From the UHGV virus genome UHGV-0123126: DNA of 39,300 nucleotides. The stretch is one strand, 5' to 3'. The notes below the pieces were generated by a model that saw nothing but the letters and a program-made list of their open reading frames with translations, had not been told where the DNA came from and ran no database searches. Made by a program: the position numbers and the translations under genes. This document shows positions 1 through 36,296 of this stretch, piece by piece. Every line of letters begins with the position of its first letter. Positions within the stretch are counted from its first letter, which is position 1. The stretch comes from a virus.

Positions 1-491
1 CGCCACCCCACGATGTATCCGGCAAACACATCAATGATGAACGCCACATAGACGAAGCCCCGCCATGTGCTGACGTAAGTAAAATCAGCCACCCACAGCT
101 GGTCAGGTCGTTCTGCCACGAACTGACGGTTTACGCGGTCGCCTGCGGCAACGGCTTTCCGGCTGATGGTCGTACGGACCTTTTTACCCCGGAGAACACC
201 GGCAAGTCCCATAACCGCCATGAGACGTGCCACAGTGCATCTGGCCACTCTGATACCTTCCCGTAACAACTGACGCCAGACTTTACGCACACCGTATACC
301 TTGTGATTTTCATCGTATACGCGCTGTATCTCTTTCTTCAGCCAGTCATCGCGCTGCGCACGGGCACTGCGTTTATCCGGATGATGTCGCTGTTGCTGAC
401 AGTGGTAATACGTTGACGGGGCAATATGCAGTTCGCTGCATAGCGGTCCGACCCCGTACTGCTCACGCAGCTTATCCAGCAGTGGCATCAT
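1..491 (-). CDS. IS3-family transposase OrfB (DDE catalytic domain), 3' end beyond window start
   Basis: Own translation of minus strand: [22 protein letters not shown]...[36 protein letters not shown], open to position 1. The track ORF 131..313 is in a different, spurious frame. Confidence 0.85.
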
Positions 492-814
492 TTTTTCCAG
501 AGGCGGTCGAACTCCGCCTTCGCAAAATAAGCGGAAGCCTGGCGAAGGATATCGTTACTGCGGCGCAGTTCACGATTTTCACGTTCCAGCTCTTTCAGAC
601 GCTGACGTTCAGCGGTGGTGAGCCCTCCATCACCGCCCCCGGTATCCCGCTCATGCTGGCGAACCCAGACACGCAGAGTCTCCGGCGTACAGCCAATCTT
701 TGGAGCAATGGAACAAATTGTCGCCCATTGTGAGTCATATTCGCTCTGACTTTCCAGAACCATACGGACTGCCCGTTGACGGACTTCGGGGGAAAAACGA
801 GTATTTTTAGTCAT
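488..814 (-). CDS. IS3-family transposase OrfA (HTH DNA-binding, leucine-zipper-like C-terminus)
   Basis: 108-aa [26 protein letters not shown]...; 3' end overlaps OrfB at the frameshift window. Confidence 0.85.
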
Positions 815-1961: not shown

Positions 1962-2387
1962 TCAATCTTCTTGTTTAGGGAAAAACTGTTCAATAACTCT
2001 GTCAACGGCTGTGTCTATATGGAGTAGATGCCACACAACCATATCTTTGCTTCCCATGCCTTGTGTGAATATCACGTCATACTTACGCCATGCGCAGTGG
2101 AACCAATATGCTGAGTCATCAATTGGTAAATCCTCTCCCGCCTCTTTGAAGTATTTCAGCAGCATTGCCTGCTCTGCCGTTGGCGTTGGACCTATTTCCT
2201 GAGCGTACATACGGATGAATCGCTGCCAGTCTGTCTCGTCGGGGGTTGGATCTGGTGGGGTCATTTCTGCGATAGCGTTTCGTAGCTGATGCGCCCAATC
2301 AGGTTCAGGAAAGCCTTTTGCTACTTCATCATCAATAACATCCAGAGCCACGTTTGCGGCATCGTAGAGTTTCTTAATAGCTGCCAT
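1962..2387 (-). CDS. Hypothetical protein
   Basis: 141-aa ORF; SD-like AAGGATAAG upstream; preceded by conserved 20-mer TTTTAAACAAATTGTTTTCT (plus-strand spelling). Confidence 0.55.
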   Translation of the reverse strand: MAAIKKLYDAANVALDVIDDEVAKGFPEPDWAHQLRNAIAEMTPPDPTPDETDWQRFIRMYAQEIGPTPTAEQAMLLKYFKEAGEDLPIDDSAYWFHCAWRKYDVIFTQGMGSKDMVVWHLLHIDTAVDRVIEQFFPKQED

Positions 2388-2434: not shown

Positions 2435-2462
2435 GATAAAAAAGGCGTCCAACTGGACGCCT
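2435..2462 (-). terminator. Rho-independent terminator (stem AGGCGTCC/GGACGCCT, loop AACT, T-run on minus strand)
   Basis: Hairpin 2443..2462 followed on the minus strand by TTTTTTAT; sits just after the SPFH gene stop. Confidence 0.55.
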
Positions 2463-2478: not shown

Positions 2479-3309
2479 TTATTTCACTGTAATGAAAGGA
2501 GTGTTAGCCCCTTGAGTCATGTACTGCGGTAACTGGCCATTCCATTTATTGATGGCTTCCAGTTCCATAACGTTCGGGTTTTGACGCAGAGCTTCACCGC
2601 GCAGACGAATGGCGTCTGCTTCTGCTTGCGCACGAGCACGGATAGCATCAGCTTCACCATTAGCCTGTTCACGTAGCATATTCGCCTCAGCTTTACGTTG
2701 TTCAACTTCCTGCTGACGTTGCAGAGTACGCTGGTTAGCCGTTACTTTGGCGTTAATAGATTCAATGACAGTTTTTGGGTAATCAGGCTTTCCAACCCAT
2801 GACAGGCTCAGTACCTCAATACCAACCGGAGACATCTCTTTCTGAATATCTTTCAGTGCGTTGTCCAGCAATTGTGCCTTACCACCGTCGATAAATGAGT
2901 CAGTGGTCATACGGCTGGCCAAACGGTTTAGAGAGTCGGCAATTTTCTGACGCAGATCTGATTCGGTGATATCGTCTACGCCTTTGCGATAGGTCTGGAA
3001 CACCGTCGTTACCTTGTCACGATTAACCAGATACGCAACGCCAATTTTGTGACCAATAGCAGTACCGTCACTCATCTGGAATGTGAACGGCTCGTCGTAG
3101 GTCTTCATTTGTTTGAAGGTCGGGAATACGTAAAGTTCGGTGTTAAGACCTGTCCATTGGCGACCAACGCCAACCACTTCACCAATCCCTTTGTCTTCAC
3201 CTAATTTGTTTACTTTGATGCCAACGTATCCAGGCTCCACGCGATCACAGCCAGTAAGACCCATTGTGCAAATAGCCGCCAGAGCAACTGCAAGTAAACC
3301 TTTCTTCAT
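2479..3309 (-). CDS. SPFH/band-7 (HflC/HflK-like) domain lipoprotein
   Basis: 276 aa; signal peptide with lipobox LTGC; C-terminal Ala/Glu/Arg-rich coiled-coil typical of SPFH proteins (recognised by eye). Confidence 0.7.
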   Translation of the reverse strand: MKKGLLAVALAAICTMGLTGCDRVEPGYVGIKVNKLGEDKGIGEVVGVGRQWTGLNTELYVFPTFKQMKTYDEPFTFQMSDGTAIGHKIGVAYLVNRDKVTTVFQTYRKGVDDITESDLRQKIADSLNRLASRMTTDSFIDGGKAQLLDNALKDIQKEMSPVGIEVLSLSWVGKPDYPKTVIESINAKVTANQRTLQRQQEVEQRKAEANMLREQANGEADAIRARAQAEADAIRLRGEALRQNPNVMELEAINKWNGQLPQYMTQGANTPFITVK

Positions 3310-3312
3310 TAC

Positions 3313-3513
3313 TTATTTCCCCTTTGCTTTGATTAATGAGTTGATAAACTTACGACCAGCAATAAGACCGATTACAGGAGCACCAAAACCAACGACAACT
3401 CCAAACATGACGGCTAAATCACTCTTGGTAGAAATCAGCGACGGAACCAGTAAACCGTAGATGAGAGCCACTGAAAGGCCTGTGGCTACTGCCAATAGAT
3501 AGATTTTGATCAT
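3313..3513 (-). CDS. Small two-helix membrane protein, co-operonic with the SPFH lipoprotein (possible NfeD-like partner)
   Basis: 66 aa, two hydrophobic segments; stop 4 nt upstream of the SPFH start. Confidence 0.5.
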   Translation of the reverse strand: MIKIYLLAVATGLSVALIYGLLVPSLISTKSDLAVMFGVVVGFGAPVIGLIAGRKFINSLIKAKGK

Positions 3514-3545
3514 GTGTTTTCCTATGTGGTTGTTATGTGAAAATA

Positions 3546-3561
3546 ATAAGTAAGTACTTAT
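3546..3561. promoter_or_regulatory. Palindrome ATAAGTA-AG-TACTTAT upstream of the SPFH operon
   Basis: Member of a recurring ATAAGTA..TACTTAT palindrome family (also 15746..15759, 23317..23338, 26840..26859). Confidence 0.4.
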
Positions 3562-3572
3562 ATATTTTCAAG

Positions 3573-3600
3573 AGATAAAAAGGCGTCCTGTGGACGCCTT
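3573..3600 (-). terminator. Rho-independent terminator (AAGGCGTCC-TGT-GGACGCCTT)
   Basis: Perfect 9-bp stem immediately 3' of the recombinase stop, followed by a T-run on the minus strand. Confidence 0.6.
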
Positions 3601-3604
3601 GTGT

Positions 3605-5944
3605 TTACTCTTCTACTGACTCGGTGGGGTTGTCTTTTGCTCTTCGGTCGTCGATTGCCTGCAAAGCCGCAATGATTTCAGCCAGTGGCTTCTCCCGATA
3701 CATCTCGACGATCTGCGATTTGGTGTATTTCTTGTCACCAATTTCAACTCGCCCGCTGGCGTTCTTTGGCAGGTATCCTTCTTCCAGCATGTACTCGACG
3801 AGCGATTCGATAACGTCGAGGCCACGAGTAGGATCGAAGTAGAATTTCCAGGTGCATTTGCCATACGGTGGTGCAACTTTGTTTTTGATGCATTCTGCGC
3901 CTACGTCCTGGCCGATCTTCTCTTTACCATCCTTCATCACCGATGCACCAAGACGGATACGTACAGAAGCGTAGAACTTCGGTGAATCTCCACCTGGCGA
4001 CGTAGTAGGGTCGCCAAACATTACACCGATTTTTGTGCGAACCTGATTCAAGAAGATGATGCAGGCGTTGTATTTGCGTGCCCACAAAGCCAGAGTAGGG
4101 AAGTTCGCACTCGTCGCACGAGCCAGTGCCGTATTGTCGTTCATGTTTAGCTGATCTTTGTCTTTGGCTGTGCCTTCAGCCATCTTTTCGAACTTCTCGG
4201 CTTTGGAGTTCGGAACCATAGACGCAAGAGAGTCAGCCACGATACAGATAGGTGCTGATTCGGGGATAAGCTCTTCATCACGAACCAATTTAAGTATTGT
4301 GCCGATCAACTCTACAGAGTCTTCGAAGGTATCTGGCTGCTTGTATACCCACTGACCGTCATCCTCATCTGCGTTCAGGCCATTGGCTACAGCCAGGCCA
4401 ACGTCAAAACTGTTTTCATGATCGAGGAATACCGCCAGACCATCTTGTTTTTGAGCGGAGATCATCGCTGCTGTTGCAAGGAATGTGTTGTGGCTGATAA
4501 TCCCGTTAGACCAGAAAGAGTGTGTTTCCGGCATCGCTACGTCGAACGTTGGTGCTTCACCTTCCTCAATAGCCACGACTTCGTCGTAGAACAAGTTAGA
4601 GCCAATTACCGCTGCCAGTTGTGCAAACAGATGCTCGTTAAAACGATTCTTTCTGCCAATGAAGGAGACATAGATTTCTCGCAGTTTGTCTATTCCGACA
4701 CGATCGCCGCGGCCAATAACGTGGTCTACCAGAGCGTAGTCTTCACGGGTGGTCTTGGTGAGCGACTCGTAGAGTGATTTCACTAAGCCGCTGATGTGCG
4801 GAACATAGCCTGAGTAAGTGCGGTCAAAACCAATGTCCCGTTTGGTTGCCACTGATAAACGTGCCGGAGATTCGAAACCAATCGTTGACAGAAAAAGGTC
4901 GTAATTAGAGCCACTGAATGACAGCCGGTAATATGTATTTTCATAACCCGCGACGTGTTTTTCAGAGATAGTTGACGTAATCCCCAGATTCAGGAGCATG
5001 AGGCGAATTTGCTGTAGCAGCAGCCCACTCGCGCTCACAACCTCAATGCAGCGACCATCATTGACGTGGCATTCCAGCTCAAAGTAGCCGCGAAGGAATG
5101 CAATTTGAGCCTCGCTATTGGCGCGACGCACACTCAACGGAACCTGCTTGCCAGCAGCTTTCTCATACTCCAGACCATATTCTTTAAAAAGCAGCGAACG
5201 CACCTCTTTGCTAAACAGCACATGGTCTTCCGAGCCGTTATGTTTTCTCGTAACTGGCATCTTGTCTGATACCAGCGAAATGAGGCGGTAGTACTCATCC
5301 TTGATGAAAGGATCTGTGTTAGAAAAATTCACTGAATTTTCAGAGGCCACGTATCCGTCAGCAATTAAATAGCCCATCAGTTTTGCGATATTGGCATCCA
5401 GGTGCTGATCGCCGAATTGATGTGTGCCAACCATTGAAGGAATCGTGTCGCCTACACTGATTTTTTCAGCATGTCGCCAGACGACATTACCTAAGTCGTC
5501 AACCACACGGATTGGGTGACGGAACGTAGCCTCGATATAACCGCCTGATGCCAGCTTAATACGCTTGAATTTGCGACGGTTGTTCCATGTCAGGTGTGAG
5601 GTCTTCTCTATCACGCCATTTTCATTGATGAGTCCAACGTTATGCTCTACATCGCGAGTAGTGCATGTCGCTTTGTACCCTTCAATCTCAAACAACTCTT
5701 TCACTGTTACCATTCCACGCTCCGTCAGCAGCATGGTGTCTGCGGTAACACATTTCCCCGCGCTTGGTGGCCCGAATACTTCTACGATACGACCACATGG
5801 GAAACCGCCATCGTAACGACCGGAAATAGCTTTGTTTAACGGAGGAAAGCCTGTGTCAATCCAATGAGTTACTTTCTGAATTTCGTCGTTGCTACCGATT
5901 TTCTTTTTCAGAGCAAGTGCCAGTGCGGATTTTCCTTTTGCCAT
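3605..5944 (-). CDS. recA: RecA-family recombinase (RecA/UvsX-like) interrupted by an intein; 779-aa precursor, about 357-aa mature protein
   Basis: N-extein ends GRIVEVFGPPSAGK (Walker A); C-extein resumes TFLATAAM... and contains NQVRTKIGVMFGDPTTSPGGDSPKFYASVRIRLG, closely matching the E. coli RecA core recalled from memory. Confidence 0.9.
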   Translation of the reverse strand: MAKGKSALALALKKKIGSNDEIQKVTHWIDTGFPPLNKAISGRYDGGFPCGRIVEVFGPPSAGKCVTADTMLLTERGMVTVKELFEIEGYKATCTTRDVEHNVGLINENGVIEKTSHLTWNNRRKFKRIKLASGGYIEATFRHPIRVVDDLGNVVWRHAEKISVGDTIPSMVGTHQFGDQHLDANIAKLMGYLIADGYVASENSVNFSNTDPFIKDEYYRLISLVSDKMPVTRKHNGSEDHVLFSKEVRSLLFKEYGLEYEKAAGKQVPLSVRRANSEAQIAFLRGYFELECHVNDGRCIEVVSASGLLLQQIRLMLLNLGITSTISEKHVAGYENTYYRLSFSGSNYDLFLSTIGFESPARLSVATKRDIGFDRTYSGYVPHISGLVKSLYESLTKTTREDYALVDHVIGRGDRVGIDKLREIYVSFIGRKNRFNEHLFAQLAAVIGSNLFYDEVVAIEEGEAPTFDVAMPETHSFWSNGIISHNTFLATAAMISAQKQDGLAVFLDHENSFDVGLAVANGLNADEDDGQWVYKQPDTFEDSVELIGTILKLVRDEELIPESAPICIVADSLASMVPNSKAEKFEKMAEGTAKDKDQLNMNDNTALARATSANFPTLALWARKYNACIIFLNQVRTKIGVMFGDPTTSPGGDSPKFYASVRIRLGASVMKDGKEKIGQDVGAECIKNKVAPPYGKCTWKFYFDPTRGLDVIESLVEYMLEEGYLPKNASGRVEIGDKKYTKSQIVEMYREKPLAEIIAALQAIDDRRAKDNPTESVEE
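4487..5752 (-). other. Intein (422 aa) with LAGLIDADG homing-endonuclease domain, inserted in the RecA P-loop
   Basis: Begins with Cys right after GPPSAGK, ends ...SHN followed by Thr; internal LMGYLIADGYV motif. Confidence 0.85.
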
Positions 5945-8246: not shown

Positions 8247-8363
8247 GTGTTTCTCCTTGTTGTGATTTGGCCGATGGCGCTATGCGCGTTGGGCTTTCGT
8301 TCATTCGTGGCTCTTTCGAGCTGTTAAATGATAGATCAGTACTTACTTATTATCTATCAAAAA

Positions 8364-14266: not shown

Positions 14267-14450
14267 GTGTTTTTACCTTTATGGTTTTTTTGATTTTGTC
14301 ATTGGGGAAGCCTACGAACTTCCCATACATCGAAATCGCAACTTCTTTTGCTGATTGGTGACAATCGGGCTTGTCTGGACATACCAGACAAGCCTTACCA
14401 GTTTCAGAAGCAGCGATAAGAGAGCCGAAACATCCTTTACGCACGATCAA
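14241..14450 (-). CDS. Small hypothetical protein (69 aa) coupled between the CobS-like and polymerase genes
   Basis: Start overlaps CobS-like stop, stop overlaps polymerase start; several Cys residues. Confidence 0.35.
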   Translation of the reverse strand: MIVRKGCFGSLIAASETGKACLVCPDKPDCHQSAKEVAISMYGKFVGFPNDKIKKTIKVKTHESTDGSN

Positions 14451-15682
14451 CCAAATATTTTTTGAACAACTTCACGAGCCGCTTGTGCAGAAGCTGAAGG
14501 GAGTTTGTTAATGAAAGAACGCTCAATACCTGTCACAAAGTCGCCTCGCATCATTCCAATCTTGGCCGACAACAAAAGTTCACGAGGGCCAATTGGCTGA
14601 CTGATAAGGTGTTCTTCGTATCCATCGCGAACGATACCGGCAAACTTAACCATCTTTTCTGCGTATTCATCCACGATACCGGCATTTATCAACATGTTGA
14701 TCTCTGCCTCTTTGCTCATGTATTTCACATTCGAAACGATGCCAAAACGCGAAAAGTTCGCGGCGTTCTGGATGTTTGTACCCTGGTACAAGCCGGTTTC
14801 ATCACCAGATCCGTTCGTGTTGCCAGTGCCAATGAAAGCAAACCGTTCATGCGGAGTAATGCGACGCCATTCTGGAGTCGCCTCTTTGATGACCAACGCT
14901 TCACCTTCCAGCACTGGCTGATACACGCCAAGAATCTGTGGAAACGCAAAGTCGTATTCATCCGCGAGGTAAACCCAGCCATGCTTCATTGCGAGCGCAA
15001 GCAAGCCAGGCTCGAAATACGTAGAGCCATCACGCGCCAGAATTTGCCCCGTAACATGTGCCTCTTCCATTGATGCTGTATGTTGGGCACGGATCAACGG
15101 ACGATTGAGCAAAGCACATAGTTGTGTAGGCAATGACGATTTGCCTGTTCCTGCATGACCCCACAAATAGCCAGGTATGCCAAGTTCAAGCATCATGAAA
15201 ATGTCTTTGATCAGTTCGAAGTCGCCATATACGTAGCCCTTCTTCACTTCTGGAACGAACTCTGGAAACGGCGTATTGACGTTGACGCTAACCATGAGCG
15301 GCGTCCCACGTTTTGTTCCGAGTTCTTTCACCGTTACATTTAGCAGTTCGTGAGCTGCGACCAGATCTGTCTTGTACTCAACTGTGCCTGTGTAGCCTGG
15401 GCTACTGGTCACGCCAGATGATTTGGCCATTTCGCTTTTTTGCTCGGCACGTTTAGCTTGAATTGCATCAAGTGCCTTTTTCGATAGCGTTGGTTCATCT
15501 GGAAACTGCGTTGTGTACATTTTCAGTACGGTGTCAGGATCGGCATCTTTTACTGACTCAGGAATGCCCTCGCAATTACCATTGGCTACATGGGACTTAA
15601 AATAGTGAAATGATTTGCCGCACCACTTGCAAACAAGGTAATCAGAAGGATTTTTATCATTTTGCAGTGCAGTAGTAGTCAT
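14447..15682 (-). CDS. cobS: CobS-like / MoxR-family AAA+ ATPase
   Basis: Walker A GHAGTGKSS, Walker B-like VYLADEYD; 411 aa; paired with a downstream vWA protein. Confidence 0.85.
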   Translation of the reverse strand: MTTTALQNDKNPSDYLVCKWCGKSFHYFKSHVANGNCEGIPESVKDADPDTVLKMYTTQFPDEPTLSKKALDAIQAKRAEQKSEMAKSSGVTSSPGYTGTVEYKTDLVAAHELLNVTVKELGTKRGTPLMVSVNVNTPFPEFVPEVKKGYVYGDFELIKDIFMMLELGIPGYLWGHAGTGKSSLPTQLCALLNRPLIRAQHTASMEEAHVTGQILARDGSTYFEPGLLALAMKHGWVYLADEYDFAFPQILGVYQPVLEGEALVIKEATPEWRRITPHERFAFIGTGNTNGSGDETGLYQGTNIQNAANFSRFGIVSNVKYMSKEAEINMLINAGIVDEYAEKMVKFAGIVRDGYEEHLISQPIGPRELLLSAKIGMMRGDFVTGIERSFINKLPSASAQAAREVVQKIFG

Positions 15683-15745
15683 GCGCTTTTCCTTTGTTCT
15701 CTAATGAGCGTTCAAGTTCTTATATAAATATACCATTAACTATGG

Positions 15746-15759
15746 TAAGTAGTTACTTA
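15746..15759. promoter_or_regulatory. Palindrome TAAGTA-GT-TACTTA within conserved GGTAAGTAGTTACTTATC, between the CobT-like and CobS-like genes
   Basis: Near-identical GGTAGGTAGTTACTTACTTATC occurs at 31411..31430 upstream of another minus-strand gene. Confidence 0.4.
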
Positions 15760-15777
15760 TCATTAAGGCTGTTTTAA

Positions 15778-17886
15778 TTACTTCAAAATGATACGAGATA
15801 GTTCAGTAACTACAGATGAACCAAGACTATCAACACTAGTTACCAGGGCATGATTTGCGTAAAATCTCTCCGGTGCATCAGTCATGATGCCAATTGCCAT
15901 CAAATCAATGTCAGTCTGCGTTTCAATTTGCTTCGTAACCGAACGCAAATGGGCGTCAAAACCTCTCCCAACAGCCCACGGCGCGCCATCACTCAGAACA
16001 AGCATGATCTTCCTGTCCTCCAAGCGACCGGAAAATAACGATGCAAGGCTGGCTATGCTTTCACCATCCACGTTATTAAGAAGTGGGAATGTGTAGCCTA
16101 CGCACCCCATACGTGAGCGAACTTCGCGAGAATTTGCTTTTTCATTCCAATTTTTGATGATAGGTAGCATTAAAGATTCAAAGCGAGAGAACTCATATTT
16201 GATAGCCTTAAGTTCTCCTGCTGCCATATGACTGCCAAATGTAGTGAAGCCGGTGATAATGTTGGGAACATTTATTCGATCAAGTGCATCGGCGATGGTA
16301 TATGCACTTGCAAGAGCTAGTTTTATCGTTTCGCCACTCATTGAACCCGATAAATCAATCACTTGTTGAACACAGGCGTTAACGGCTTTAGATTCTTCTT
16401 TTTTACGAAACACGCGATCATCATTCATTGTTAATCTGTAGATACTTGAACCATGAATGCGCCCCCGACGCTGGCCAGGTATAAACTGAACTCTGTTTCT
16501 GCTTGCTATTGCACGTTCCAGGTCTTTTGCCAGCGTCGACGAAACACCTGACGAAAGGTGCTTTTCAATATATTTGTCGAAGAGCTGGTTGCCTTCAGGA
16601 ACGATGCGATAACGGCTGATTGGATATCCACCTAAATCAATATCGGAGAATGTTTTAATAAGCCGTTTGATATGGGCTTCTGCCTGATCAATCGAGCCGA
16701 TGAAGTCGTATGAGCGATTGTATGGCCTGTATTCGCTTTTCGAGCTTTCTGTTAACTCGCTTTTAATCGTTTCGGATAGCGCATCTTCTGTCATGCCTCC
16801 GACTTCATCTTCCATGCTATCCAACTCCTCTAAAGCCTCTTCCAGACTCATTTTTGACGGAGTTGGAATGTCTGAAGAGCCGTCTTCTGTCGATTTTCTT
16901 TTTTCGTGGTCAGTGGTAAATGATTCTGACGCCGCGTTATCAGAAGCACCAGAATCTGATACCTCTTTATCATTTTCTGTATCATCGAATATTGTTTCTG
17001 ATGATTCAGAATTATCTGAATCATCACTGTCGTTATTATCATGTTTGTACTTACTGTGTGATTCTGATTTGATAGATTTGTGATTATCTAACGCTGAGGG
17101 TGTCTCATGATCTTCGTTGTCTTCATTGTTTTCTCCAGAGGCATCCGTCTGGTCAGCGTCTGAAGGATCGGAAGTTTTTCCCGGAGCTGACTCCTTACCT
17201 TTGCTTTCACTTTCAGTGTCTTTGAGGATCTTAGCTATGGTCGCAGCCACCTTTACACAATCCTCGGTGCAAGACATGTTACGCACGGCCACATCGATAC
17301 CATGTTCTTTTAATAATGAAATTGGTTTCTCAATGACAGGCCAATATTCATCCATGAAATCTACGAACGGTGCTTGGCCATCCCAGGCTCTTACAACCGG
17401 ACAGAGAAAGAAGTTTAGAAAAAGCGCGCGCTGATCTTTGCCACAATAAGCAATAGCCTCTGAAGCCTTTGTTTTAAAGACTTTTTCGATTATAAGGCGC
17501 TGAGTTGCCATCAGATTACGTCTTGTTCCGTTAAAGACCTGACCCATTTTTCGCTCGATGAACACGTCTTCTAAGGCATTCCATAGCGACCAGGAAGGAA
17601 CGCGTCCTTTTTCTCTCATTTTGTTGGACACACGAATATCGGTAAACAAAATGTGAGCAACCTCATGATCGAGAAATCCGCGCACAGCATTCATCAATGC
17701 CGGTGTTGCGTTATCCGGGATTGATGGGATGTTTACGAGAATTGGCTCTCCATCATCGTTATAGCGTACATAAGCGTCGTCCCCTCGTTCTGCAACAGGG
17801 ATGTTTTTACCTGAAAGGAGAGCGACTACTCGTTTTACACTGTCACGGAAGTCCTGAACCTCTTTGATGGAACGTTTTTTAGACAT
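15778..17886 (-). CDS. cobT: CobT-like von Willebrand factor A (vWA) domain protein with long acidic low-complexity linker
   Basis: 702 aa; MIDAS-like DLSGSMSGE; Ser/Asp/Glu-rich segment around residues 220-370; directly upstream of the AAA+ partner. Confidence 0.8.
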   Translation of the reverse strand: MSKKRSIKEVQDFRDSVKRVVALLSGKNIPVAERGDDAYVRYNDDGEPILVNIPSIPDNATPALMNAVRGFLDHEVAHILFTDIRVSNKMREKGRVPSWSLWNALEDVFIERKMGQVFNGTRRNLMATQRLIIEKVFKTKASEAIAYCGKDQRALFLNFFLCPVVRAWDGQAPFVDFMDEYWPVIEKPISLLKEHGIDVAVRNMSCTEDCVKVAATIAKILKDTESESKGKESAPGKTSDPSDADQTDASGENNEDNEDHETPSALDNHKSIKSESHSKYKHDNNDSDDSDNSESSETIFDDTENDKEVSDSGASDNAASESFTTDHEKRKSTEDGSSDIPTPSKMSLEEALEELDSMEDEVGGMTEDALSETIKSELTESSKSEYRPYNRSYDFIGSIDQAEAHIKRLIKTFSDIDLGGYPISRYRIVPEGNQLFDKYIEKHLSSGVSSTLAKDLERAIASRNRVQFIPGQRRGRIHGSSIYRLTMNDDRVFRKKEESKAVNACVQQVIDLSGSMSGETIKLALASAYTIADALDRINVPNIITGFTTFGSHMAAGELKAIKYEFSRFESLMLPIIKNWNEKANSREVRSRMGCVGYTFPLLNNVDGESIASLASLFSGRLEDRKIMLVLSDGAPWAVGRGFDAHLRSVTKQIETQTDIDLMAIGIMTDAPERFYANHALVTSVDSLGSSVVTELSRIILK

Positions 17887-18374: not shown

Positions 18375-18417
18375 TTTACAACCCTAACCTTTGATGTAAT
18401 ATCGGTAAGCACTTACC
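18375..18417 (+). promoter_or_regulatory. Sigma70-type promoter (TTTACA, 16-bp spacer, TAATAT) followed by palindrome GGTAAGCACTTACC
   Basis: Hexamers at 18375..18380 and 18397..18402; 14-bp palindrome at 18404..18417; divergent intergenic region. Confidence 0.45.
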
Positions 18418-23316: not shown

Positions 23317-23338
23317 GATAAGTAAGTAAATACTTATC
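23317..23338. promoter_or_regulatory. Palindrome GATAAGTA-AGTAAA-TACTTATC, 3' of the small-gene operon
   Basis: Perfect 8-bp arms; same ATAAGTA/TACTTAT family as 3546, 15746, 26840. Confidence 0.45.
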
Positions 23339-26979: not shown

Positions 26980-28017
26980 ATGAAACATTTCAAACCAATA
27001 TCTTTCTTTATGTTGTCGCTATTACTTGTTTCGGGGAGTGCACATGCCTATGAAATACAAAAGCTGATCGATGCGGCAAAAGCAGGCGACGTTGAGTCAC
27101 AGAGTGCTTTAGGTATCGACTATATGAAAGGTATTCATGGTGTCGAAAAAAACTACGATGAAGCCAGAAAATGGCTTGAACTGGCGACTTCTAAGGGGAA
27201 CAAAGAAGCGTTTAATGCTCTAGGTATAATGTATGCCCTTGGGTATGGGGTTGATAAAAATTTCAAAAAGGCTGAGGAACTCTTTAAGAAAGCTGGTGAT
27301 GCAGCTGGAGGCAACTCTTATCACAATCTGGGTGTTATTTATCATAAAGGACTTGCGGGTAAGAAAGACCAAAAACTTTCCCTGAAATATCACAAACTTG
27401 CAGTAGAGGCTGGCGACCCTGAATCTGCGTCATATCTAGGACAGTTATATTATGTTGGCGCAGGCGTGCCAAAAAGCTACAAAAAGGCAATAGAGTATTA
27501 TAAAAAAGGAATCGAACTAGGCAGTGCATCTGCATTGGCGAATCTTGGCATTATGTATGAGTATGGTGAAGGGGTTAAAAAAGATTATAAAAAAGCAGCT
27601 GAGCTTTATCAGGCAGCTTGCGATAAAGAAGATAAAAATGGCTGTGATTACATTGCAGAACTAAAAGAAAGCGGTAAATACCAACCATCAGCAGCAAGAT
27701 CTAAAGCAAAATCCTCCACTCAGCGACTTATTGCTAAATCCATTGATAAAGGCGTTAACGCAACATTTACCTGGCAGGGTGATGATGCCACCTTCACCGC
27801 TAATGATGGCAAAATTGACTGCACTTTCCTAAAGGATTTTTCAGAGAAAGGAGGCAATCTGGCTACCTCGTTTGTTTGCACCGATAACGTTCAAATCATC
27901 CTGAAGCAATTCAGAGATACCAAGAATGCCTACCTCGCGGTAATGACTGACAACTTCAACACAGAAGTTAAATCATTTTCGGTCAATGTTTACGTGACTA
28001 ATACTGGTTCAAACTAG
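26980..28017 (+). CDS. Secreted Sel1-like repeat (TPR-like) protein with N-terminal signal peptide
   Basis: Signal peptide ending SGSAHA; repeated about 36-aa units with A-x-x-G-[VI]-x-Y and K-A-x-E-[LW]-[YF]-K-K-A spacing. Confidence 0.8.
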   Translation: MKHFKPISFFMLSLLLVSGSAHAYEIQKLIDAAKAGDVESQSALGIDYMKGIHGVEKNYDEARKWLELATSKGNKEAFNALGIMYALGYGVDKNFKKAEELFKKAGDAAGGNSYHNLGVIYHKGLAGKKDQKLSLKYHKLAVEAGDPESASYLGQLYYVGAGVPKSYKKAIEYYKKGIELGSASALANLGIMYEYGEGVKKDYKKAAELYQAACDKEDKNGCDYIAELKESGKYQPSAARSKAKSSTQRLIAKSIDKGVNATFTWQGDDATFTANDGKIDCTFLKDFSEKGGNLATSFVCTDNVQIILKQFRDTKNAYLAVMTDNFNTEVKSFSVNVYVTNTGSN

Positions 28018-31396: not shown

Positions 31397-31678
31397 GTGG
31401 CTCACCTGGTAGGTAGTTACTTACTTATCACAATGAACGGATGATAGCGACTGGTGGCAGTTTTTGGAAGTGGAAACGGAAGGGAGTTGTTCTGGTGGTG
31501 TCTTTTAAAAGACCTGCTTCCGTATATATTTAATAAGTTACTTATTATTTATATATACAGAAGCAGGCATAACTTGTCGTCTTAGACGCCCAGAAGCTCT
31601 ACACTTTGAGCCTGTTAAATTGATTAAAAACTTATGTGTAAAATAGAACGCATTAGTCAGTAGCTAAGAGATGCAATA

Positions 31679-36094: not shown

Positions 36095-36296
36095 GTTTTC
36101 CTCCATGAAAAGTCAAATCGGGATGGCGGATTTATATCACACTTCTCCTTTCAATTATAGGTATATACTTACCTATCTATGTATATACCGTTTAACGGCT
36201 GTTCAAATTCGTATCTAGTAACTCACTAATATATCCCTATGATTGCGGCTGTGAGATCGCATTTTAAACCTCACAGCCATATAAATAATGTCTAAA

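Follow-up and report, generated by a model that had tools for sequence, protein, structure and literature searches.

Results

A two-gene cassette in an SSU5-like phage-plasmid

We analysed UHGV virus genome UHGV-0123126, a stretch of 39,300 nucleotides (nt) that we refer to as the window, with a focus on a cassette of two genes on its minus strand that encodes an SPFH protein and a small membrane protein. The upstream open reading frame (ORF) at 3513..3313 encodes 66 amino acids (aa), and the downstream ORF at 3309..2479 encodes 276 aa. Only 3 nt separate the two, and the Shine-Dalgarno-like GGGGA in front of the 276-aa ORF sits within the 3' end of the 66-aa gene. The pair is preceded by a sigma-70-like promoter (3543..3571, minus strand; TTGAAA-17-TATTAT, matching at 10 of 12 positions) and enclosed by two intrinsic terminators on the same strand, which were located by a terminator scan and RNA folding. 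The upstream hairpin (3573..3600; dG -14.7 kcal/mol, z -4.5) ends the intein-containing recA-like gene, and the downstream hairpin (2435..2462; dG -15.1 kcal/mol, z -4.3) ends the cassette; both are formed on the coding strand and are followed by U runs. One promoter and one terminator serve the pair, whose adjacency is kept across phage types.

'Escherichia phage CMS-2020a' shares 98.9% identity with the window, and phages Cyrano and PhiR41_1 share 95-97%. The recA-partner-SPFH arrangement is the same in phage SSU5, at 78% identity, and is also carried by Yersinia pestis and Salmonella plasmids of about 100-137 kb. The element is an SSU5-like phage-plasmid, and the records of Cyrano and SSU5 already name the pair 'stomatin-like/SPFH' and 'membrane protein'. 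An earlier note on this DNA had described the locus as a phage operon bounded by terminators and encoding a protein with two transmembrane (TM) segments and a lipobox-containing, HflC/K-like SPFH protein. The observation was borne out in full at this level: both ORFs lie on the minus strand at the coordinates it gave, the hairpins with z below -4, their U runs and the promoter at 3571..3543 delimit a two-gene unit, and the element is indeed of phage origin, namely a phage-plasmid. The 66-aa protein likewise has two hydrophobic segments, as had been proposed, and matches phrog_1130 'membrane protein' (E=4e-25).

The 276-aa protein is a predicted periplasm-facing SPFH lipoprotein

The 276-aa protein matched the Pfam family Band_7 (PF01145) with 106.2 bits, well above the gathering score of 23.6 (E=2.6e-30); its residues 23-209 span positions 2-176 of the 176-position profile. 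It also matched phrog_200 'lipoprotein' (E=3e-108). The SPFH domain claimed in the earlier note thus passed the check by profile hidden Markov model. The lipobox stood as well. The N-terminus MKKGLLAVALAAICTMGLTG|CDRV, encoded at 3247..3309 (minus strand), is a lipoprotein signal with the lipobox L-T-G-C and an Asp at +2, as read directly in the translation; its layout, MKK-GLLAVALAAICTMG-LTG-C21, contains a positively charged n-region, a hydrophobic h-region and a lipobox of the type [LVI][ASTVI][GAS]C. Cys21 was invariant in a family alignment of 41 sequences, and [GA]-C-D-R was retained in 96 of 120 close homologues. Asp22 corresponds to the enterobacterial inner-membrane retention residue, so the protein is predicted to be an inner-membrane lipoprotein. 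With the export signal and Asp+2, together with the three-TM topology of natural fusions described below, the SPFH domain is predicted to be periplasmic.

The AF2 model (mean predicted local distance difference test score, pLDDT, of 79) comprises strands at residues 20-95, helices at 97-162, a helix of 65 residues at 179-243 and another helix at 245-257, corresponding to SPFH1, SPFH2, a 65-residue CC1 and CC2. The C-terminal tail that follows is conserved, yet disordered in the model. Foldseek searches against the PDB aligned the model over its full length, with probability 1.0, to all cage-forming SPFH proteins. HflC/HflK (7vhq) ranked at the top (E about 1e-13), followed by erlin, prohibitin, stomatin, flotillin, QmcA-YbbJ and the vault protein, whereas sequence search alone detected only HflK (E=0.007). 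The label 'HflC/K-like' given earlier is therefore right at the fold level, since both the Foldseek and phmmer searches returned these proteins as best matches, but it fails as membership: the NCBIfam equivalog models hflC (TIGR01932) and hflK (TIGR01933) scored 30.2 and 18.7 bits, far from their cut-offs of 134.4 and 159.4. By a published linear regression, the subunit number follows the CC1 length as y=0.1782x+10.22 (PMC12624060). Extrapolated from our monomer model, a CC1 of 65 residues would correspond to about 22 subunits. In older records, the SPFH protein of such phage pairs is labelled 'serine protease' or 'transposase'.

The 66-aa protein is a conserved, dedicated partner

The product of the 66-aa gene (3313..3513, minus strand) consists of two hydrophobic helices joined by a short turn, YGLLVPSLISTKSD, and a basic C-terminal tail. 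The window partner had no Pfam match at E<=0.1. When 20 diverse partners were compared with Pfam at E<=1, neither NfeD (PF01957) nor any significant family was among the matches shown, while 16 of the 20, N-terminal parts of fusions included, matched phrog_1130. An ungapped core, Y-G-x-x-x-P-x-L-I-S-x-x-S-T, aligns across all the phage types listed below, with an invariant Pro and a nearly invariant Ser. The partner lies directly upstream of the SPFH gene in SSU5-like, P1-like, P2-like P88 (gp11/gp12), phiP27 and N4-like Moo19 elements. In Moo19, the pair is gp30/gp31, annotated as homologues of N4 gp19/gp20; in phiP27 and Stx-type phages, the small partner ORF lacks annotation. One ORF stands between the partner and the SPFH gene in PVP-SE1 and in Pseudomonas phage TL. 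In two chromosomal copies, from Shigella flexneri and E. coli (loci L092 and L093), the partner was found about 770 nt upstream of the SPFH gene rather than overlapping it, and an insertion between the genes may explain the gap in these prophage copies.

The two proteins also occur as one polypeptide. Among 150 SPFH representatives at 50% identity, 12 proteins of 330-390 aa were in-frame N-terminal partner-SPFH fusions, and three further fusions were continuous ORFs in contigs of Patescibacteria (candidate phyla radiation, CPR). All 15 fusions kept a [GAS]-Cys directly before the first SPFH strand. Their segments follow the order partner TM1, turn, TM2, basic linker, third hydrophobic segment, [GAS]-C and SPFH. 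Read as membrane topology, this order would fix the N-terminus inside, the turn outside, TM2, a cytoplasmic basic linker, a third helix and the SPFH domain outside; it is because of this segment order that we place the SPFH domain in the periplasm. The fusions also argue that the partner and the SPFH protein work as one unit, and the sequence comparisons together mark the 66-aa protein as a conserved and dedicated partner.

To estimate how regularly the two genes travel together, we surveyed loci found with a 7-sequence alignment profile in one-per-species genomes. Among 39 assessable loci, 16 had a clear partner (E<1e-5), 7 a weak or motif-only one and 3 a partner fused to the SPFH protein, and for 13 none was found. 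The partner-less loci were mostly chromosomal homologues in non-phage-looking contexts. Some of the surveyed loci had seeded the partner model; the matches at L095, L096, L098, L105, L109, L110, L112 and L118 had not. The search with the partner-alignment profile yielded stand-alone partners only, since fusions were missed through a word-index limit. At one locus in a metagenome-assembled genome of Myxococcaceae (L114, 2965..5906), a chromosomal SPFH lipoprotein homologue lies directly 3' of a 621-aa ORF that, by eye only, looks like the signal-peptide peptidase SppA. If this reading holds, the arrangement recalls the pairing of stomatin with an NfeD protease and could account for the 'serine protease' labels that phage SPFH genes once received.

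Purifying selection acts on both genes. Between the window and divergent SSU5-type variants, the SPFH gene showed a synonymous divergence (dS) of 1.3-1.6 with about 5% amino-acid change, and a ratio of nonsynonymous to synonymous divergence (dN/dS) of about 0.03. The ratio ranged over 0.03-0.07 for the SPFH gene and 0.11-0.23 for the partner. Together with the hundreds of homologues, these values exclude chance ORFs. The partner helices diverge faster than the scaffold (59% versus 95% identity in one comparison, 18-23% versus 77% in another), while the turn is fixed throughout. In locus L047 (3797..4831), which corresponds to window positions 3513..2479, the two SPFH genes do not differ in their DNA (100% identity) and the partner is about 80% identical; the partner gene and promoter region are about 76-86% identical to the window, with a sharp breakpoint at the gene boundary. 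Cyrano (L001) shows the same pattern at the protein level, with 100% identity for SPFH and 71% for the partner. As the break in identity falls on the boundary between the two genes, recombination shuffles the partners.

Cassette boundaries, a natural empty site and distribution

Both terminators contain the stem AGGCGTCC/GGACGCCT with the adjoining sequence GATAAAAA; these are the sole two copies in the window, where none is expected by chance, and they constitute direct repeats, the left copy at the upstream and the right copy at the downstream terminator. In plasmid pYPE3-114k, whose flanks are 99.6% identical, exactly 1138 bp are missing. The junction is a single hybrid hairpin, with its left flank from the downstream copy and its loop and right flank from the upstream copy. 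The gene directly 3' of the cassette (1962..2387, minus strand), which encodes a DUF7238 protein (E=5e-38; phrog_1451), is kept in this cassette-less plasmid. In SSU5 and related Yersinia pestis and Salmonella plasmids, the cassette occupies this very site, and with a GC content of 0.44-0.47 it matches its surroundings, the composition profile giving no sign of recent foreign origin. For these two reasons, the simplest reading of the empty site is a recent deletion between the direct repeats. The cassette is a discrete, dispensable module with presence/absence polymorphism. Like a moron, it has its own promoter and terminator and is absent from a near-identical genome.

Of 5426 complete E. coli genomes, 283 contain the cassette or a close relative, at 198 plasmid and 101 chromosomal places. 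A tblastn search found the SPFH protein in 413 phage records, which include virulent N4-like, PVP-SE1-like, LUZ24-like, Erwinia, phiCbK-like, crAss-like and Lak phages. In P1-like phage-plasmids (L050, 2161..6581), the pair occupies the interval from dmt to ban and follows the C1 operator Op72, whereas P1 itself (L083, 13652..17660) has plp, upl and tciABC there; the dmt-ban interval is thus a swap site for membrane-protein cassettes. We considered plp/upl of P1 as a possible equivalent of the pair and rejected it: Plp has 125 aa and is encoded on the other strand, and that 25-kb stretch of P1 contained no SPFH match.

An operator-like palindrome and early gene contexts

The promoter core, TTGAAAAT(A/G)TATAAGTACTTACTTAT(C/T)AT, varied at only two positions in 7 cassette variants whose coding DNA is merely 60-85% identical. 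The palindrome ATAAGTA-CT-TACTTAT (3546..3561), which occupies the promoter spacer and the -10 region, was invariant across the variants. With at most one mismatch, its core TAAGTACTTA occurs at 5 sites in the window against 0.95 expected, and all 5 are intergenic. A scan allowing two mismatches added intergenic sites near 31415 and 36165 and extended the consensus to GATAAGTAAGTA-n-TACTTACTTATC. The family comprises intergenic sites at about 3546..3561, 8335..8349, 15745..15759, 18405..18416, 23322..23337, 31409..31424 and 36161..36172, mostly just 5' of -10-like hexamers of genes in the replication/recombination block, such as those for the single-stranded DNA-binding protein (SSB) and a CobS-like AAA protein, among others. 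The palindrome looks like a shared operator, a candidate site for a phage regulator.

According to Pfam and neighbouring annotations, the cassette is surrounded by this replication/recombination block, which contains genes for the intein-containing RecA-like recombinase, a 5'-3' exonuclease, a gp32-like SSB, the DNA polymerase III alpha subunit, primase, helicase and ligase, as well as a gene labelled UvsY in the related phage Cyrano that had no Pfam match in the window. Elsewhere, the pair is found between cox and the replication gene A in P88, a position that by analogy with P2 would belong to the early operon; downstream of a perfect C1 operator (Op72) and on the same strand as ban in P1-like elements; and upstream of xis and int, on the same strand, in phiP27. 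In virulent N4-like, PVP-SE1-like and LUZ24-like phages, its surroundings, which we take to be early or middle regions, contain genes for RNA polymerase 2, nucleotide metabolism and nucleases. From gene context, we infer that the common denominator is early lytic, not constitutive prophage, expression. The palindrome and the early-operon contexts elsewhere suggest that expression from a repressed prophage is disfavoured.

Other features of the window

The ORF at 3605..5944 (minus strand), upstream of the cassette, encodes a RecA/UvsX-like recombinase split by an intein with a LAGLIDADG homing endonuclease. Pfam recognises RecA in two stretches, Intein_splicing and LAGLIDADG_3, and RefSeq labels the whole ORF 'LAGLIDADG family homing endonuclease'. 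Within the replication block, a CobS-like AAA_5 ATPase (411 aa) and a CobT-like VWA protein (702 aa) are encoded next to each other (14447..17886, minus strand) as a cobaltochelatase-like pair. The gene at 26980..28017, unlike its neighbours, lies on the plus strand, and its 345-aa product has five Sel1 repeats. A 108-aa ORF at 488..814 (minus strand) has an HTH_Tnp_1 transposase helix-turn-helix in a region of local GC up to 0.55 and may be a remnant of an insertion sequence.

Discussion

Comparison with known SPFH systems and phage membrane proteins

The closest structural relatives of the 276-aa protein are HflK/HflC of E. coli (PDB 7vhq, 7wi3, 9cz2), which share the SPFH1-SPFH2-CC1-CC2 architecture and the predicted periplasmic position at the inner membrane. 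However, the phage protein is only 17-18% identical to them and carries a lipid anchor, whereas HflK/HflC have an N-terminal TM helix. Moreover, HflK/HflC are two SPFH paralogues, while the phage cassette combines one SPFH gene with a 66-aa non-SPFH partner. SPFH-NfeD operons, such as QmcA-YbbJ (PDB 8z5g) and archaeal stomatin with an NfeD-type protein, resemble the cassette in joining an SPFH gene and a small membrane protein in one operon, with the partner presumably part of the assembly. They differ in that the phage partner has no NfeD or OB-fold, is only 66 aa long and is encoded first. In addition, QmcA faces the cytoplasm, unlike the exported phage protein. The acylated eukaryotic SPFH proteins stomatin and flotillin carry a covalent lipid beside SPFH1 and form homo-oligomeric domes, both of which are predicted for the phage protein, but there the lipid comes from palmitoylation or myristoylation. 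In the phage protein, a Lgt/LspA-type N-terminal diacylglyceryl cysteine is predicted on the extracytoplasmic face.

Among phage proteins, N4 gp19/gp20, the SSU5 'SPFH domain / band 7 protein', phiP27 L05, P88 gp11/gp12 and PVP-SE1 gp116/gp118 belong to the same two families in the same order. These pairs, known from annotation alone, show no essential difference from the pair in the window. T4 Imm/Sp offer a looser parallel as a small inner-membrane protein and a periplasm-facing anchored protein, both early and dispensable; however, they have no sequence or fold relationship to the cassette proteins and are encoded by separate genes without SPFH cages. Our literature search found no functional study of any phage SPFH protein, and phages go unmentioned in a 2026 paper on SPFH proteins of Pseudomonas aeruginosa. 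What phage SPFH genes do has been stated to remain unclear (PMC13239085), and a possible push to lysogeny via HflB has been raised as speculation (PMC10269572).

A proposed periplasmic dome with a membrane partner in early lytic growth

We lean towards a model of architecture and timing, in which the cassette builds a periplasm-facing SPFH dome with its partner on the inner membrane during early lytic growth, and hold it with moderate confidence. The 276-aa protein would be exported, lipidated on Cys21 and held in the inner membrane by Asp+2, so that the lipid anchor would press SPFH1 onto the outer leaflet. The CC1/CC2 helices may then drive oligomerisation into a closed dome, as in solved SPFH proteins of the same architecture. 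The two helices of the 66-aa partner would form a hairpin whose termini are both cytoplasmic. The periplasmic turn between them, P-x-L-I-S-x-K-S-D, the sole strongly conserved part of the partner, most likely docks on the SPFH1 base, and the partner would sit under the dome or in its rim. Such a microdomain could fence off a patch of inner membrane with a host protein or lipid inside. The module would be turned on alongside the replication and recombination genes, early in lytic development; rather than being a constitutive prophage gene, the cassette would condition the envelope in the early lytic phase. The domains, the lipobox, the conservation and fusion of the partner, the boundaries of the cassette and the gene contexts are observed directly, whereas we infer that a cage forms and how large it is, where the partner docks, when the genes are expressed and that there is a host client. 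FtsH leads the candidates for this client for a single reason: no other client of a periplasmic SPFH cage is known in E. coli.

Several observations weigh against this model. With regard to structure, the AF2 model of the 276-aa protein is a monomer from a shallow alignment, with pLDDT below 50 for the last 24 residues, and AF2 prediction of the natural fusion P0178 without an alignment gave a pLDDT of 52 and only the three N-terminal helices. About a third of the diverse chromosomal homologues have no recognisable partner. With regard to localisation, an Arg at +3 may weaken retention by Asp+2 in Lol sorting. Relatives in other phages have Glu, Tyr, Ser or Thr at +2, and with such residues some family members could go to the outer membrane. 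As for timing, the palindrome could be the target of an activator, or of a factor outside the lysis-lysogeny switch, and the sigma-70 promoter appears good enough that expression in a lysogen would be possible.

Alternative explanations

The earlier note had put forward, as speculation, a remodelling of FtsH-dependent membrane proteolysis and a part in superinfection exclusion. The family resemblance raises the question of whether the pair is a viral mimic of HflK/C, whose dome, with or without the partner, would enclose or perturb FtsH hexamers from the periplasm and change the degradation of CII-like regulators, phage early proteins, LpxC, SecY or sigma-32. HflC/HflK are the top matches in both sequence and structure, and the predicted periplasmic orientation is the same. 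The gene precedes xis and int on their strand in phiP27-type phages, and lambda cIII, an inhibitor of FtsH, has a leftward early-operon position of that kind. Furthermore, the periplasmic domains of FtsH contact the SPFH2 domains of HflK/C within the cage (PMC12624060). However, the identity is just 17-18%, HflK/C are not singled out, since erlin and prohibitin score nearly as well, and the cut-offs of both equivalog models were missed. The phage protein is also without the TM and N-terminal segments and the two-paralogue arrangement of HflK/C, and its own conserved membrane partner may be the cage occupant instead. Finally, the family is common in strictly virulent phages, which take no lysogeny decision. 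We therefore regard mimicry of HflK/C as a tentative idea that is rather unlikely to be correct in this form.

Superinfection exclusion or envelope protection, in which the pair, in the manner of T4 Imm/Sp, would block DNA entry or lysis-from-without by secondary phages at the inner membrane of a lysogen or of a cell in the lytic phase, would suit an inner-membrane and a periplasm-facing protein encoded by an accessory module with presence/absence polymorphism. The pair of N4-like Moo19 adjoins genes annotated as superinfection exclusion, an SPFH gene, perhaps of the same subfamily, is similarly placed in the gene table of Vi01-like PhiSH19, and the partner belongs to the PHROGs category 'moron, auxiliary metabolic gene and host takeover'. 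Against this, a scan of PADLOC-DB v2 at E<=0.1 returned no match for either protein or for the two downstream genes, and neither protein has similarity to known exclusion proteins. Exclusion genes are usually fast-evolving, whereas the SPFH gene, with a dN/dS of about 0.03, is maintained in phage families that are only distantly related. With about 22 subunits, a dome would cover a tiny membrane patch and would need a specific entry factor to sequester. Gene context in particular argues against a purely lysogen-expressed exclusion gene, because the pair occupies early regions, those of virulent phages included, and carries an operator-like palindrome in its promoter. Exclusion, like control of FtsH, is possible within the lytic cycle, but as an explanation of the cassette we consider it unlikely.

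A role in lysis timing, with a holin- or antiholin-like small protein and an SPFH cage that restrains the holin or stabilises the membrane potential and so delays lysis, is quite improbable. With its two TMs and charged C-terminus, the partner has the topology of class II holins, 'Holin' is the UniRef label of one LUZ24-like homologue, and bacterial SPFH proteins have been linked to membrane integrity and stress tolerance. The label looks automatic, however, and no Pfam holin family was significant in the 20 partners, the best being Phage_holin_3_6 in one of them (E=0.15). In the contexts that we read, no endolysin or other lysis gene stands beside the pair, whose neighbours in the window are recombination and replication genes, and it would be strange for a holin to be obligately fused to a scaffold in the periplasm.

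The precedent of PM0222, an HflK/C-like protein of 25-35 kDa from a Pasteurella multocida prophage that was reported to occur in outer-membrane vesicles and tied to TLR1/2 signalling and mouse virulence (PMC9872710), could suggest a lysogenic-conversion lipoprotein that is released, triacylated and active on TLR1/2 to aid the host in animals, but this is highly improbable here, as PM0222 may not belong to the phage SPFH subfamily, any lipoprotein stimulates TLR2, and the membrane partner, the fusions and the occurrence in virulent and environmental phages would be left unexplained.

Returning to the model of a periplasmic dome with its partner in early lytic growth, one may take it a step further, at the price of much lower confidence. 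The SPFH lipoprotein and the mini two-TM adaptor might form a portable kit, carried by phages of Gram-negative bacteria, that at an early stage of infection builds a nanocompartment on the periplasmic side of the inner membrane and traps a particular host machine there, FtsH being the foremost candidate. Sometimes the kit would be made as one fused precursor, which LspA would cut at the retained lipobox. We offer this extension as a speculation and think it doubtful as it stands. If true, it would amount to a viral takeover of SPFH-based membrane quality control and would explain the extreme purifying selection on the scaffold across unrelated phages, while the adaptor helices diverge and recombine.

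Significance

Both gene families were already catalogued and annotated in phages. Our analysis adds the partner, including its fusions, the boundaries of the cassette with a natural empty site, the operator-like promoter element and the early-operon pattern. SPFH cages, exemplified by HflK/C, stomatin, flotillin, prohibitin and erlin, have become a structural paradigm, and most bacterial members are without a known client. The family is present in about 5% of complete E. coli genomes. As temperate phages, phage-plasmids and virulent phages all carry it, it probably serves a general inner-membrane step of infection. The question is made testable by the dedicated partner and its natural fusions, by the natural clean deletion, which provides an isogenic control, and by the shared operator-like element. 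Should the cassette have no phenotype, it would be an ordinary accessory gene pair; should its client be FtsH or another host machine, it would represent a new class of phage host-takeover device.

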